A stretch of DNA of 52,981 nucleotides, taken from UHGV virus genome UHGV-1367038, one strand, 5' to 3'. Numbering within the stretch: position 1 is the first letter of the stretch; each line of letters starts with the position of its first letter. The notes beneath the pieces were generated by a model. The model was not told the DNA's origin and made no database searches. It worked only from the letters and a program-made list of their open reading frames with translations. This stretch comes from a virus. Both the position numbers and the translations under genes were made by a program. This document shows, piece by piece, positions 8,472 through 39,986 of this stretch.

Positions 8472-9893
8472 TTAAAAAGATGCTTTATTCTGGTTGTTTC
8501 GTGGCGAGAATCGGCTTACCGCCGGACGTTGTTGCATTGACTGGATGCAAGCTGACGCCGCGCGGGCCTGGTCACACGGTAATATGTTGCCGTTGTCGTC
8601 AAAACGCTGGTAAACAGTCCCGGTTTTTCCGTGACGGTTTTTTGAAACGATAATCTCCATGTATTCGCGTGCAACAGATTGTTCGTTGTAGTAGCCGTCG
8701 CGGTATACCATGATGATCCGGTCTGCGTCCTGTTCAAGATTGCCGGAATCGCGCAGATCAGAATTGTTCGGTCGCTTGTTCGGTCGTTCCTCGACGCGGC
8801 GGGATAATTGCGCCAGCGCCGCCACTGGTACGCGCAATTCTTTCGCCATCATTTTCAACGACCATGATAATTGCCCTACAGCGAGATCATGACGTTCGGC
8901 CTTAGCCAGCTTCATTAACCCGATGTAGTCAATCATTACCATACCCAGGTTAGGGTGATCCTGTTTCATTCGTTCGGCGGTGGCGCGTATTTCCTCGACC
9001 GTTAACTGTGATGCGTCAACAATCCATACTTCAAGATCAGCAAGTGCGCTCATACCCTGGGCTACGTGCGCCCATCCTTCATCATCAAGTTTTACCGGGT
9101 TACGCAGGCAATCAGTTGATAAGTTCCCAGCGCCAGCTATAGCGCGTTCGGTCATTTGATCAAGCGACATTTCAAGCGTAAAGAGCAAAACACCGACCCG
9201 CTGGCCTTCGCCGCCAGGGTAGGGGCGTTCAGCCGCCGAGCGGGCTATTGCTAACGCTAACGCTGATTTGCCAGACCCAGGACGTCCGGCGATAAGCACA
9301 AGATCAGTGGCGTTAATGCCGCCTAACATTTCGTCGAGTGGTTCTATCCCTGTTTTTATGTTGTCAGAATTGACACCGCATTCCATGCGCTTACTTAAAA
9401 CTTCCGTGTACTCCTGTACTGCGTCGCGCAACAGTACCGGAAGGATCTTGTCTTTCGTTACCTTTAATTTTGAATACCGGGAATCAAAATCCTTCATCGT
9501 CTCCTTGACAACCTCAAGCGTCCCCGTTTCCAGCTTGTAGCGAACGTCTTCCATTAGCTCCAGCATTTGCCGCCGCTGGTGTTCTTCCTGTAGTAGCTGC
9601 GCGTACCCTTTCAGGTTGGCAGCAGAAGGACACGATCGCGCCGTTTGCATTAGCGGTATGAAATTTTCGTTACCGATTTCATCACCAACCAATAACGCGT
9701 CGATAAGATTTCTGTTTCTGGCTTGCGCCCTGATGATTTCGAACGCGCGCCTGTACAGAGGAATAGTGAATACATCAGGATCGAGTGTAGCAAGAACATC
9801 TTGCGCGTTAGGAGTAAGCCCGCCTAACAGGAGGCCACCTATAACAGCCGCTTCGCGCTCCTGCCGCAATGAGTTCACTTGCTCAGTTATCAT
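8472..9893 (-). CDS. dnaB: Replicative DNA helicase (DnaB family)
   Basis: 473 aa; Walker A GRPGSGKSALALAIA; DnaB-like N- and C-terminal domains. Confidence 0.9.
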   Translation of the reverse strand: MITEQVNSLRQEREAAVIGGLLLGGLTPNAQDVLATLDPDVFTIPLYRRAFEIIRAQARNRNLIDALLVGDEIGNENFIPLMQTARSCPSAANLKGYAQLLQEEHQRRQMLELMEDVRYKLETGTLEVVKETMKDFDSRYSKLKVTKDKILPVLLRDAVQEYTEVLSKRMECGVNSDNIKTGIEPLDEMLGGINATDLVLIAGRPGSGKSALALAIARSAAERPYPGGEGQRVGVLLFTLEMSLDQMTERAIAGAGNLSTDCLRNPVKLDDEGWAHVAQGMSALADLEVWIVDASQLTVEEIRATAERMKQDHPNLGMVMIDYIGLMKLAKAERHDLAVGQLSWSLKMMAKELRVPVAALAQLSRRVEERPNKRPNNSDLRDSGNLEQDADRIIMVYRDGYYNEQSVAREYMEIIVSKNRHGKTGTVYQRFDDNGNILPCDQARAASACIQSMQQRPAVSRFSPRNNQNKASF

Positions 9894-9911: not shown

Positions 9912-11030
9912 TTACAAAATGGAATATTCAGGGTAATAAACAAAGCGCCCAATTTCTCCATGAGCCGGGCTGTAAATAATCACCGCCGCCAGCCGCCGTG
10001 AACGCCAGCCGCCATTCGTCGAGTAAGCATCTTTGCCAGCTAACGTTCCGTGATACTCGACAACGCCTAACGATGATTCAATCAGCCGCTGGTGATGCCA
10101 GTGTCCGCAATGAGCGTAAACCGACGACGATTTACCGAAATCCTCCCGCCAGTCAGAAACACAGGCAGCAAGTAAGGTTTCTGGTTTTTTGATGGTGTGT
10201 CCGTGGTGGTAAGCAAGGAATGTTTTTCCGTATTGTGTGTGGTGGACGATAGCAGGGGACACATCAACCGTTACGCGCGGTTCATCTTCGTAAAAAGCCG
10301 CCAGCGCCGCACGTAGCCAAATCATCCCCGACTGATCGTGATTGCCGGATAACACCTGGATCTCGACGTCCTTATGGTTTAACAACATTTTCCCCACCGC
10401 ACGCCGGACCGACCGGATCGCCACATAAACAAGTTTTGCGTAGCGTGAATCGCAATCTAAGACGTGATTACTTGATGGCGTCACTGGTAATAGCCCGTCC
10501 GTGTGAAGCACATCACCGCCGAGAAGCAATACAGCTTTTTCAGACGTTGGTGCAGCGCCTACAGCGTAGTCAAAGAAGTCATTTAACACGCGTTCAGCGA
10601 TCCCGGTGTCGTAGCTTTCTCCGCATTCAGCTTTATGCGCAAGCGCCCCGATATGCAGATCGAATACCGGATAAAGGGCCAGGCTTTTCTGAAAATCAAT
10701 TTCCGGCACTGGCACGGCTTCCGCGCGCGGCATTTCTTCCGTAAATGCGTCACAAGCTGCCTGCATTAGCCTTTCCATTTCCTCACGGTCACGGGCCGTT
10801 TTAATCCAGCGCATGATTACATTGCCATCTTTATCAACGAGCAATGATTCACCATTGACACCAAAACCCGGCGCGCGGCGCGTGGATATTAAACCGCGTT
10901 TCGCCAGCCGTGCGCCCAGGCGCTCGACGTTGCGTTTTGCCATGCCGTACTTCTCAGCGATCTGTTTATACGTCAGGCCGCTGTTATGTTCAGCGATTAA
11001 TTCCTCATCGCTGATCTTTCTTTGTGACAT
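9912..11030 (-). CDS. HTH domain fused to calcineurin-like metallophosphoesterase (Mre11/SbcD-like motifs)
   Basis: N-terminal HTH (LTYKQIAEKYGMAKRNVERL); DLH, GGDVLH, GNHD, GHWHH motifs; start taken at ATG 11030 with GAGGA RBS (alternative 11045). Confidence 0.6.
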   Translation of the reverse strand: MSQRKISDEELIAEHNSGLTYKQIAEKYGMAKRNVERLGARLAKRGLISTRRAPGFGVNGESLLVDKDGNVIMRWIKTARDREEMERLMQAACDAFTEEMPRAEAVPVPEIDFQKSLALYPVFDLHIGALAHKAECGESYDTGIAERVLNDFFDYAVGAAPTSEKAVLLLGGDVLHTDGLLPVTPSSNHVLDCDSRYAKLVYVAIRSVRRAVGKMLLNHKDVEIQVLSGNHDQSGMIWLRAALAAFYEDEPRVTVDVSPAIVHHTQYGKTFLAYHHGHTIKKPETLLAACVSDWREDFGKSSSVYAHCGHWHHQRLIESSLGVVEYHGTLAGKDAYSTNGGWRSRRLAAVIIYSPAHGEIGRFVYYPEYSIL

Positions 11031-11159
11031 AACGTTATTCCTCATGTTTACAGAATGTATATTTATTTTCCGTAAAACGCGCTACAACGCAAAATCCCAC
11101 CGCGTAACCCACTTATAAGAGTGCAGTGTCTTTCTTGCGTCAGAGGCGCTATCAGGTGG

Positions 11160-11393
11160 CTATTTTTTGATTTTTAAGATGACATAAACGTTAGCTTGTT
11201 GGCGTCCATGCAATTTACTCCTGCAAATGGCTATTACTCCGGCCTGTTCCAGAGATCGGATCGCTAGCTTAACACTTTGCCGACTCACTCCCAACCTGTC
11301 AGCAAGCATGATAAGTGATATTTGATAACCTCCCGTCCGGCAATGCACAGCCAGCAGATCGTAAACTTTACGCTCAGTTTTGGTTAATTTCAT
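11160..11393 (-). CDS. Small winged-helix DNA-binding protein
   Basis: 77 aa; wHTH pattern LADRLGVSRQSVKLAIRSLEQAGVI. Confidence 0.5.
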   Translation of the reverse strand: MKLTKTERKVYDLLAVHCRTGGYQISLIMLADRLGVSRQSVKLAIRSLEQAGVIAICRSKLHGRQQANVYVILKIKK

Positions 11394-11520: not shown

Positions 11521-12513
11521 TCAAAGAGCGCCAGCGCGGGTGTCGCGTAGCGTTTTTGGTTTTAGTAAGAAATCTAGTGTCGCAGTGAAGCCATTGCCGA
11601 AGTAAAAATCTGAGGCCGTATTTTTGAACGCTTCGAAGTAGCTGATAAAGCCTTTGATGCTTTTATCTTTCAGGTAGTCAGAGAACGCATAAATTTTACG
11701 TTCCAGATCCCGATCAAGTTCAGCAGGTGGTAACAGGCCATCAAACGTGCTGTTAAATGCTTCCACTACGTCGGCGGCGTTTACGGTAGCTGATAGCTTG
11801 CGCCATTGTTCAGCATCAGCCAGATACCCATCGAATTTAGTTACCCGGCAAATGTTAATAGGCTTAGGCACTCCACCACGACTACGCCATTGAGTCAAAG
11901 CCCATTCAATTACTAATGTGATCTCATCCTCCGTATATGCCTTACGTGTTTTTGTTTCTGTCAGTAGTTCGATAAATGGTTTTGCGTCACGACATTTGCA
12001 TCCTGCCTTGTCGTTGTAGAAGGCTAGGCAACGCAATGCTGCCAAATTAGCCGCCTGATCTTCTTCGCTAATAGGCCCGTCTTTTTCCAATACACGGAGT
12101 GTATTGTTTTTAATGTTCTCTTTACTGGTTATATATGACTGATTAGGGTGTCTCTCTGACACTACCCCCGGTGTCACAGTGACACTACCCTGGTGTCTCT
12201 CTGACACTACCCCCGGTGTCTCTCTGACACTACCCTGTAATGATGGTAAGACGATTACATAGAAGTTACTTGTTTGCTCTTTTCCTCCTATTAGATATCG
12301 AGGTTGCTTAATCAATAACCCTTTCTCACAAAGAGCATCAATAGCCCGCATAGCTGTGCTTTTGCCTATTTCGCATTGCTTTGCTATGTGCTGGTAAGAA
12401 GGGTAACATTCGCCGTTATCGTTAGCGTTATCAGCCAACTTTAACAGCACAAGTTTGTGCATTGGGTTGCCGACTTCAGTATGAAAGACTTCAACCATTA
12501 GCCGCATACTCAT
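11521..12513 (-). CDS. Replication initiator (lambda O-like, N-terminal HTH) containing origin iterons
   Basis: HTH (SYQHIAKQCEIGKSTAMRAIDALCEKGLL); four iterons inside the ORF; AGGAGG RBS before ATG 12513 (alternative 12519; listed start 12561 is TTG). Confidence 0.7.
   Translation of the reverse strand: MSMRLMVEVFHTEVGNPMHKLVLLKLADNANDNGECYPSYQHIAKQCEIGKSTAMRAIDALCEKGLLIKQPRYLIGGKEQTSNFYVIVLPSLQGSVRETPGVVSERHQGSVTVTPGVVSERHPNQSYITSKENIKNNTLRVLEKDGPISEEDQAANLAALRCLAFYNDKAGCKCRDAKPFIELLTETKTRKAYTEDEITLVIEWALTQWRSRGGVPKPINICRVTKFDGYLADAEQWRKLSATVNAADVVEAFNSTFDGLLPPAELDRDLERKIYAFSDYLKDKSIKGFISYFEAFKNTASDFYFGNGFTATLDFLLKPKTLRDTRAGAL
12147..12236. repeat. Four tandem ~22-bp iterons (GGTGTCTCTCTGACACTACCCC), candidate replication origin
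   Basis: Direct repeats each containing a GTGTC..GACAC palindrome; AT-rich segment on the gene-downstream side; inside O-like gene. Confidence 0.7.
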
Positions 12514-12821
12514 AAACATTGGCCTCCTATGGTTAAAATGAACGCGCGGGCGGGTATCCAATTAGCATTAGATAGCGGTGAGTGACCGCTTAACAGATCC
12601 CGCCGTTGCGTGATATTTGTCTTTCGCTTCGCAGCGACACCGGATTTTTAAAGAGCATGAGGTATGCGCCTTTTTGTGCTATTCCGTTATCTTTTTTCTT
12701 GCGTCTTTGCAACTATGGCCTTACCTTGTCTGCAAGTTTACAGAATGGAGTTTTTAGATCAAGACTTGAAAAATACATTTTGTGACTTGTATCAAACTTT
12801 TTGAGGTTATAGGGTAGCGAC

Positions 12822-38936: not shown

Positions 38937-39986
38937 ATGTACTTTACAAAACAAAATTTAGCCACTAACAGCCGGATGCAAGCACATTGGGCTGAACTGT
39001 GGGCGCAACGCAACATCTTCAACAATCAGCATGACGCCATGATTGCGGCTAACAAGGCAAACATGACCGCTGAAATGTTGGCCTGTAACGCAGTTGGCGG
39101 CTTCGCAAAAGAATTCTGGAAAGAAATTGATAACCAGATCATCGAACTGAACACCGAAGAAATCGGTATCGAAATCGTAAACGACCTGATGGGTGTACAA
39201 ACCGTATTACCAATCGGTAAAACACTGAAAATGTACAACGTATCCGGCGATATCAACGATGAAGTCGTAATGTCTATGGATGGTCAAGCGCCACACGGCT
39301 TTGATCACACCGAATACGGTAGCGATGGCGACCCGATCCCGATGTTCGCCGCTGGTTATGGTGTTAACTGGCGTTTAGCTCAGGGCCTGAATACTGTAGG
39401 TATTGACCTTGCTCTGGATAGCCAGCGCCTGAAACTGAAAAAATTCAATAAGGCCCGTGTTAAATTCTACCTCAGCGGTAACGAAAATATCGTGGTAGAC
39501 GGTCATAAAGCTATGGGTATTAAAAACCATAAAAACACTCAGCAGCTTACCCTGACCACTGACCTGACCACAGCAGATTTCGAGGCGATTATCGACTTCT
39601 TCACCATTGGTGAATTCGGCGTATTGGCCCGCAATAACTTCGTTGCAAAATACGATGTTATGTGGGTATCTCCTGAAATCATGGCTAACCTGGCACGTCC
39701 GCACATCGTTAACGGTGCTGTGGTTGGTAGCGTACTGCAAACGGTTATGCCGTTCGCCCCGGTCGGCGAAATCCGTCAGACCTTCGCACTGAAGGGCAAT
39801 GAAATTATTGCTTATCAGCGCCGTCGTGATGTGATTTCTCCGCTGATTGGTATGACTACTGGTGTAGTACCTCTGCCGCGCTTCATGCCGACTGACAACT
39901 ACAACTTCCGTATCATGTCAGCAGAAGGTTTACAGATCACCTGCGACATGTTAGGCCGTTCCGGTGTCGTTTACGGTCACGCATAA
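38937..39986 (+). CDS. Major capsid protein
   Basis: 349 aa; GGGGA RBS; strong terminator directly downstream; position in head module. Confidence 0.6.
   Translation: MYFTKQNLATNSRMQAHWAELWAQRNIFNNQHDAMIAANKANMTAEMLACNAVGGFAKEFWKEIDNQIIELNTEEIGIEIVNDLMGVQTVLPIGKTLKMYNVSGDINDEVVMSMDGQAPHGFDHTEYGSDGDPIPMFAAGYGVNWRLAQGLNTVGIDLALDSQRLKLKKFNKARVKFYLSGNENIVVDGHKAMGIKNHKNTQQLTLTTDLTTADFEAIIDFFTIGEFGVLARNNFVAKYDVMWVSPEIMANLARPHIVNGAVVGSVLQTVMPFAPVGEIRQTFALKGNEIIAYQRRRDVISPLIGMTTGVVPLPRFMPTDNYNFRIMSAEGLQITCDMLGRSGVVYGHA

Follow-up and report, generated by a model that had tools for sequence, protein, structure and literature searches.

The initiator genes of phages lambda, P22 and L contain iterons that differ from phage to phage, and the gp12 helicase is of the DnaB type (bioRxiv 10.1101/2020.10.05.325894). 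In lambda, ori consists of iterons within gene O, an A-rich tract and a palindrome (PMC3349717); the lambda record annotates four iterons inside gene O (39034-39118), then the A-rich tract and then the palindrome. In P22, the replication origin (rep_origin) is annotated inside gene 18 and comprises four repeats, an A-rich tract and a CCCCCT...AGGGGG palindrome. Here we describe a candidate origin of this type in UHGV-1367038, a virus genome of 52,981 nucleotides (the whole stretch analysed, referred to below as the window), in which four tandem repeats lie inside a predicted replication initiator gene. We estimate a probability of roughly 85% that these repeats are the iterons of a prophage replication origin, embedded in the linker-coding part of the prophage's own initiator gene. 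The origin follows the lambda/P22-type plan, which is of an already known kind and will not surprise a specialist in phage replication, in a phage group without a described origin.

The window is a prophage of Escherichia coli belonging to the mEp021 group (mEpimmI). The RefSeq label of the identical prophage gene is 'helix-turn-helix domain-containing protein', and no origin is annotated there. The mEpimmI phages were called non-lambdoid by the authors who described them and who did not map the origin, and the genome paper mentions neither iterons nor an origin (PMC11893012). The present analysis provides these gut coliphages with a concrete, testable assignment of the origin and the replication module.

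Four probable iterons inside the initiator gene

The initiator gene and the elements of the proposed origin are as follows, in gene direction:

11521..12513, minus strand: replication initiator gene, 330 aa (open reading frame; Pfam HTH_36; PHROG 428/8540/391/345; homologue starts MSM.LMV)
12215..12236, minus strand: iteron 1, first in gene direction, AGGGTAGTGTCAGAGAGACACC, codon phase 1
12192..12214, minus strand: iteron 2, GGGGGTAGTGTCAGAGAGACACC, codon phase 2
12170..12191, minus strand: iteron 3, with a variant centre, AGGGTAGTGTCACTGTGACACC, codon phase 1
12147..12169, minus strand: iteron 4, GGGGGTAGTGTCAGAGAGACACC, codon phase 2
12107..12146, no strand: AT-rich tract, 25% GC, A-rich on the coding strand and including the CAGTCA boxes; candidate DNA-unwinding element
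12088..12106, no strand: 19-bp palindrome CAATACAC-gga-GTGTATTG, beyond the AT-rich tract, in the position that palindromes also occupy at lambda and P22 ori

The four repeats are arranged head to tail at 12147-12236, with start-to-start spacings of 23, 22 and 23 bp (roughly two turns of the helix) and the dyad GTGTC-N5-GACAC in each. Read on the plus strand, three copies are GGTGTCTCTCTGACACTACCC and the second (12170-12191) is GGTGTCACAGTGACACTACCC, with the centre CACAG. Tandem Repeats Finder (TRF) reports the array at 12147-12235 both with period 23 (3.9 copies, score 143) and with period 45 (2.0 copies, score 161). A 21-mer search allowing up to three mismatches finds these four sites only in the 52,981 bases (0.00 expected from 100 shuffles), and the dyad with at most one mismatch occurs in the window at the iteron sites only (0.69 expected). 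Within this gene, which is the first of the early operon, the array is located at about 280 nt, downstream of the part that encodes the DNA-binding domain. An earlier reading of the sequence alone (the original prediction) had described four tandem repeats of about 22 bp inside a coding sequence, one of them a variant, with a GTGTC/GACAC palindrome, and both our reading and TRF bear this out.

The array encodes the peptide QGSVRETPGVVSERH / QGSVTVTPGVVSERH. One and the same DNA unit is translated as GSVRETP in one phase and as VVSERH in the other. A unit of 22/23 bp cannot be divided by three, and the four DNA repeats therefore yield no more than two peptide repeats, each of 15 residues. The array thus does encode a repeated peptide, as had been predicted, in two copies. 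The third reading frame of the unit contains a TAG stop, and the 23/22 alternation is a coding compromise, since a 45-bp pair (15 codons) holds the array in its two open frames. Since successive copies are read in codon phases 1, 2, 1, 2, the repeats are selected as DNA rather than as peptide.

The tract next to the last iteron (12107-12146) has 25% GC, where the window averages 46%, and a value this low is reached by only 1.3% of 40-nt windows; the longer segment 12085-12146, at 30.6% GC, falls at the 2.3rd percentile. The adjacent AT-rich tract of the original prediction is therefore real though modest. The order of iterons, AT-rich tract and palindrome, and their orientation to the initiator gene, is the same in the window, lambda and P22, in keeping with the lambda-like arrangement proposed earlier. 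As in lambda, the four iterons of about 20 bp have an internal dyad (the lambda spacing is 20/24/23, and both lambda and P22 equal the family described below in mean spacing), they lie inside the initiator gene between the parts for DNA binding and partner binding, and the initiator gene belongs to an early operon beside a cI-type repressor region. The iteron sequences themselves are unrelated to those of lambda and also differ from the P22 iterons, which are TTTACC-N5-GGTAAA. In iteron plasmids of the RepA, RepE, pi and TrfA type, directly repeated initiator sites adjoin an AT-rich unwinding element. The window shares with them directly repeated, predicted initiator-binding sites beside an AT-rich element; the plasmids differ in that the iterons lie outside the rep gene, the initiators are tandem winged-helix proteins of another family, and the host helicase is used.

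Domain organization of the initiator

Along the predicted protein, the winged-helix domain at the N-terminus is followed by the linker that the iterons encode, by a middle region that is extra with respect to P22 gp18, and by a C-terminal module similar to that of gp18. The two terminal parts are located as follows:

12238..12513, minus strand: N-terminal DNA-binding domain (predicted), aa 1-92 (Pfam HTH_36; alignment; helix classes that track iteron classes)
11524..11784, minus strand: C-terminal module, aa 244-330 (BLASTP to P22 gp18; co-occurrence with a DnaB-like helicase)

Pfam HTH_36 (PF13730) matches aa 16-67 with 55.7 bits against a cut-off of 25 (E 4.4e-15), and four PHROG families of 'replication initiation (O-like)', 428, 8540, 391 and 345, match with E values from 1e-25 to 3e-39. 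The recognition helix lies around aa 50-62 (IGKSTAMRAIDAL). The start at 12513 (MSMRLMV...) agrees with the invariant M1-S2 of homologues; the RefSeq start for the identical prophage gene is 12519. The last 87 residues (aa 244-330) align to aa 181-271 of P22 gp18 in BLASTP with 35% identity (E 7e-14), and this module is probably the helicase-recruiting domain.

The N-domain is of a different family from those of lambda and P22. Phage_rep_O (PF04492), which recognizes lambda O at 5.7e-36 and P22 gp18 at 6.9e-38, gave no match to the window initiator at E<=0.01, BLASTP against lambda O returned nothing significant, and an NCBIfam search yielded nothing useful. The 'O-like' label of the original prediction is thus supported by the HTH_36 and PHROG matches, but not as sequence homology of the N-domain to lambda O; it denotes an analogous architecture together with a gp18-like C-terminus.

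Iterons across the HTH_36 family

The family was surveyed with the N-domain alone (aa 1-92) as query, so that loci were not selected on their repeats. A search of IMG/VR gave 12 loci with identities down to 42%, and in 12/12 an array of period 21-23 lies right behind the domain; the sequence of the array differs in each, and the C-terminal halves differ as well. The 80 loci obtained in a profile search restricted to one genome for each species belong almost entirely to Gammaproteobacteria (Enterobacterales, Pseudomonas, Vibrio, Shewanella, Pasteurellaceae and marine genera), with two from Alphaproteobacteria (Martelella alba and Thalassospira lohafexi). TRF detects an array of period 21-24 at 0-110 nt behind the domain in 54 of the 80 loci, compared with 3 arrays in 461 kb of flanking sequence, and repeats are visible on inspection in nearly all TRF-negative loci. 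With a uniform caller, at least three iterons were found in 85 of 90 non-identical homologous genes, the number ranging from 3 to 7 with a mode of 4-5. The mean spacing across non-identical genes is 22.3 bp, and successive spacing pairs sum to 45 in 97/190 cases. The encoded peptide is unrelated between lineages, and the DNA periodicity and the dyad symmetry are kept. The position and periodicity of the repeats are conserved in 85 of the 90 genes, with a sequence that is specific to the lineage.

Among the named members of the family are the 'replication protein O' of SfV, mEp460, the cdtI phage, several Stx2 phages, Aggregatibacter S1249 and many Vibrio phages, with N-domains 52-60% identical to that of the window. 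They share with the window the N-domain, 3-7 iterons of 21-24 bp, CAGTCA boxes and a variable C-terminal module; they differ in iteron class, in having boxes of canonical form and frame where those of the window are diverged, and in their C-terminal modules and partners, many of them having a lambda-P-like gene.

The classes of iteron sequence follow the classes of recognition helix. The helix GRSTVK..R pairs with GGGCAGGAGCTGACC, the helices SKSAVR and GKSTVRK with TGCCA-N5-TGGCA, the helices xRRS and xKRS with GTG[A/C]A-N5-TGCAC, and the helix SKRT with GTGAC-N5-GTCAC. The last pairing also occurs in distant loci of Erwinia, Izhakiella and Ningiella, where the N-domain shares only about 60% identity with those of the mEp group. 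In a set of 100 non-identical genes having GTG-N9-CAC iterons, base 4 of the half-site is A or C in 91 of the 94 genes with Arg52, and T in 6/6 genes with another residue at this position. This co-variation, which lends weight to the iteron character of the repeats, is suggestive, though not proof, of an initiator N-domain that reads the iterons; the association is inflated, since domain and repeats are linked and share descent. The family may be viewed as a compact natural experiment on initiator/iteron specificity, as in the change from Ser52 to Arg that goes with a symmetric T-to-A change in both half-sites.

This change can be followed among close relatives of the window. In the mEp-group phages that share the N-domain, the four repeats agree in place and in spacing, but their cores are specific to the lineage: GTGTC-N5-GACAC in the window, mEp554 and locus L006; GTGAC-N5-GTCAC in mEp010, mEp044, L008 and L009; and GTGGC-N5-GCAAC in mEp021 and L007. 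The change from GTGTC/GACAC to GTGAC/GTCAC is symmetric in both arms and accompanies S52R, a substitution where the recognition helix starts; otherwise the N-domains are 92-96% identical. Such a symmetric change in two arms would be expected of a site read by a dimer. L006 (IMGVR_UViG_2737471838_000004, 2777-2912), whose N-domain is 96% identical to that of the window, has six iterons in the form of three 45-bp pairs. Compared with the window, the iteron number thus appears to change in pairs with the reading frame preserved, and the six iterons imply that the initiator tolerates a linker 15 aa longer.

MagusPhagus (L005) has the same C-terminal half of the initiator with a different N-terminal domain (Lin1244_N), and about four copies of 11-bp repeats (TCATGACC-like) at 2655-2695, where the 22/23-bp iterons would be. 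This arrangement looks like a module swap of origin specificity. The recombination joints in mEp554, L007 and MagusPhagus all lie just past the AT-rich tract, and the N-domain and repeats therefore travel as one module. In the family as a whole, C-terminal parts from at least 10 clusters are found behind the HTH_36 N-domain with its origin module.

Some further observations were made on these loci. A separate 84-aa winged-helix gene lies upstream in MagusPhagus. A CCCCCTTACCCCC...GGGGG palindrome, encoding the peptide PPLPPxGG, follows the boxes in several family loci and opens many C-terminal modules (for example L027, L031, L032, L040, L063 and L068, as well as P22, L099 964-985); it sits at the usual recombination joint between origin module and partner module. 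Two loci, in prophages of Ca. Phlomobacter (L028) and Haemophilus (L083), keep a single iteron copy, and the array of a Rouxiella prophage (L070) looks degenerate; the N-domain and the boxes are still present in all three, which may be decaying prophages with inactivated origins.

A conserved box block beside the iterons

In most members of the family, the last iteron is directly abutted by a block of about 40 bp, CC-AGA-ACC-AGT-CAC-TCT-TTT-GAA-CCA-GTC-AAT-GAA-CCT, in which GAAYCAGTCA occurs 2-3 times, spaced by 17 and 12 nt. The window has a diverged version of it within the AT-rich tract:

12122..12144, minus strand: two 'CAGTCA boxes', AATCAGTCA-tatata-ACCAGTAA

The synonymous sites of the block are essentially frozen. 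The mean top-codon fraction over 63 non-identical genes is 0.95 (Ser AGT in 63/63, Ser TCT in 53/53, Arg AGA in 54/54 and Glu GAA in 55/55), compared with 0.51 for 45 conserved N-domain residues of the same genes, which use 2-6 codons each. The box copies inside one gene differ in codon phase, and in some lineages, the group of the window among them, the boxes stand in another frame than in the canonical block; in the group of the window they are also spaced differently and encode an unrelated peptide. The canonical form is seen in loci L018-L097 and L181-L300, and the frozen block spans prophages of Enterobacterales, Pseudomonas, Vibrio, Shewanella and Pasteurellaceae. In a scan of viral contigs the box occurred only together with an HTH_36-type N-domain, in 110/110 contigs having enough upstream DNA; it is absent from lambda. 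Because its synonymous sites are frozen, its copies lie in differing phases and it is found only with this N-domain, the block belongs to this type of origin as an element at the DNA level, and it depends neither on iteron specificity nor on the partner.

A description of the block was not found in the literature, the searchable part of which is incomplete. We consider it possible, at somewhat less than even odds, that the HTH_36-type initiator family carries an invariant and apparently undescribed origin element, the GAAYCAGTCA block, besides its lineage-specific iterons. The block could be the site where a conserved face of the initiator engages DNA for duplex opening, or a helicase-loading site. 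It is the only part of the finding that may be new biology, and it is directly testable with origin plasmids.

Two comparisons of the box with known elements were rejected. The sequence GAATCAGTCA in the P22 origin had been considered as a shared box, but 80 P22-type loci show it to be the variant right arm of P22 iteron 4, TTTACC-GAATC-GGTAAA. By eye, the box does not fit the consensus of a DnaA-box, IHF or LexA site.

Predicted helicase partner and neighboring genes

Downstream of the initiator gene, on the same strand and in the same operon, lie three genes of interest:

11160-11393, minus strand: 77-aa stand-alone winged-helix protein just downstream of rep (MarR_2 and weak HTH_36 matches)
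9912-11045, minus strand: 377-aa protein (PHROG 704 'DNA repair exonuclease', 2.5e-137; weak N-terminal helix-turn-helix matches)
8472..9893, minus strand: phage DnaB-family replicative helicase (Pfam DnaB_C 3.9e-76 and DnaB N-domain; TIGR00665, TIGR03600; BLASTP)

The helicase is 57% identical to P22 gp12 over 444 aa in BLASTP. The original prediction had set a DnaB-family helicase partner apart from the P protein of lambda. The helicase gene is indeed there, but it marks no departure from known biology: since both window proteins have P22 homologues, a DnaB-type helicase instead of P is the known P22 solution, that is, the gene 18/gene 12 arrangement in which the phage supplies its own helicase. 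In the C-terminal cluster that includes the window, a DnaB-like helicase gene lies downstream in 11/12 loci with enough downstream DNA and a lambda-P-like gene in 0/12; other C-terminal clusters pair with lambda-P-like genes. In other family members with the same C-terminal module, the helicase gene directly follows the initiator gene. These associations support, short of proof, the view that the C-terminal module specifies the helicase partner. On these comparisons, the replication module of the mEp021 group is a mosaic of lambdoid parts, in which the N-domain is of the HTH_36 family and has its own iterons, the C-terminus is of the P22 gp18 type and the helicase of the gp12 type.

By eye, the 377-aa protein shows the calcineurin-type phosphoesterase motifs DxH, GD, GNHD and GHxH. 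Its gene is conserved in the mEp021 group and is an unusual insert for a module of the gene 18/gene 12 type.

Alternative explanations and a model for initiation

Several observations weigh against reading the repeats as origin iterons. The AT-rich tract is only moderately extreme (1-2% tail). The palindrome is retained in mEp021, mEp010 and L006 but replaced in mEp554 and L007. The co-variation of helix and iteron is confounded by linkage and shared descent and comprises few independent events. A sequence search of the PDB found no relative, even at E<=1, to back the domain model. Unlike in P22, two genes, those for the phosphoesterase-like and the 77-aa winged-helix proteins, separate the helicase gene from the initiator gene. 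The palindrome, followed by TTTTTAATGT, has an intrinsic-terminator-like score on the plus strand, antisense to the initiator gene. A promoter scan found no antisense promoter that would feed it. Since it lacks a promoter and its position equals that of the lambda and P22 palindromes, we count the palindrome among the origin elements; it may nonetheless be an antisense terminator.

A different role for the repeats is conceivable. Plasmid iterons act in copy control too, and since the array stands in the first early gene, at about 280 nt, a bound protein could affect its transcription; the repeats might accordingly be regulatory binding sites only, serving autorepression, titration or copy control, or a roadblock, for the initiator or for another protein, with replication starting elsewhere in the prophage. 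We regard this as unlikely, given the complete tripartite lambda/P22 layout in the same order and orientation, the absence of the motif near the promoter region and from the rest of the window, and the retention of the array with the N-domain in 85/90 homologues whatever their regulatory context. It is more improbable still that the repeats are bound by a small stand-alone winged-helix protein, either the 77-aa protein or, in mEp021 and mEp010, the 81-aa product of a gene upstream of rep. Both are distant paralogues of the initiator N-domain (25-35% identity, 25% for the 77-aa protein, with weak HTH_36 matches), but their presence varies where the iterons stay: the window does not have the 81-aa gene (a clean 267-bp difference), and the annotations of mEp021 and mEp010 show no counterpart of the 77-aa gene at the corresponding position. 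Moreover, the iteron class tracks the recognition helix of the initiator itself. Finally, the region encodes a segment rich in Gly, Ser, Pro and Val whose length varies among relatives, as would be seen if the array were a protein-level repeat or a slippage-prone linker expansion with no function as DNA. This can hardly be right for a 22/23-bp unit that is read in two frames, so that the DNA is repeated four times and the peptide twice, whose peptides are unrelated between lineages while period and dyad symmetry of the DNA persist, and whose two arms change symmetrically between lineages.

For the origin reading, we infer that the initiator binds the iterons and that unwinding and initiation take place at this site. 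Homology shows the encoded initiator to be modular, with a winged-helix domain at the N-terminus, then a linker and then the C-terminal module. Dimers of the N-domain may bind each iteron through the half-sites GTGTC and GACAC (10 bp from centre to centre), and the four sites at a spacing of about 22.5 bp may assemble a nucleoprotein complex like the lambda 'O-some', as the dyad, the spacing and the co-variation suggest. By analogy with ori lambda, the complex would destabilize the neighboring tract of 25% GC with its two CAGTCA boxes, bounded by the palindrome. The gp18-like C-terminal module would then bring the phage's own DnaB-type helicase, so that the origin could be opened without the lambda-P route of capturing the host helicase; gp18/gp12 homology and co-occurrence point to this step. 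Transcription from the early promoter region just upstream would cross the origin, as in lambda, and may help in its activation.

Flanking transcription and source of the prophage

The cI-type S24 repressor gene is transcribed divergently from 12822. A divergent transcription switch lies 400 bp from the origin region. A scan with the sigma-70 consensus upstream of the initiator gene detected no early promoter directed leftward. Between the operator region and the rep gene, mEp021 and mEp010 carry the 81-aa winged-helix gene mEp021_14 (L001 5120-5400 and L002 3110-3400); it is missing at window positions 12514-12560, and the rep gene of the window uses its ribosome-binding site and is the first gene past the operator region. 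No gene is evident in the window at the position of Cro.

E. coli strains PAR and KKa019 carry a prophage with 100% identity to the window, and the closest phages, at 85-90% nucleotide identity, are mEp021, mEp010, mEp554, mEp044 and MagusPhagus. In each of three genomes that match a 661-bp query at 99-100%, including NZ_CP012379.1 (E. coli PAR), the query also matches a second place, which suggests that these genomes carry another related prophage or a fragment of one.

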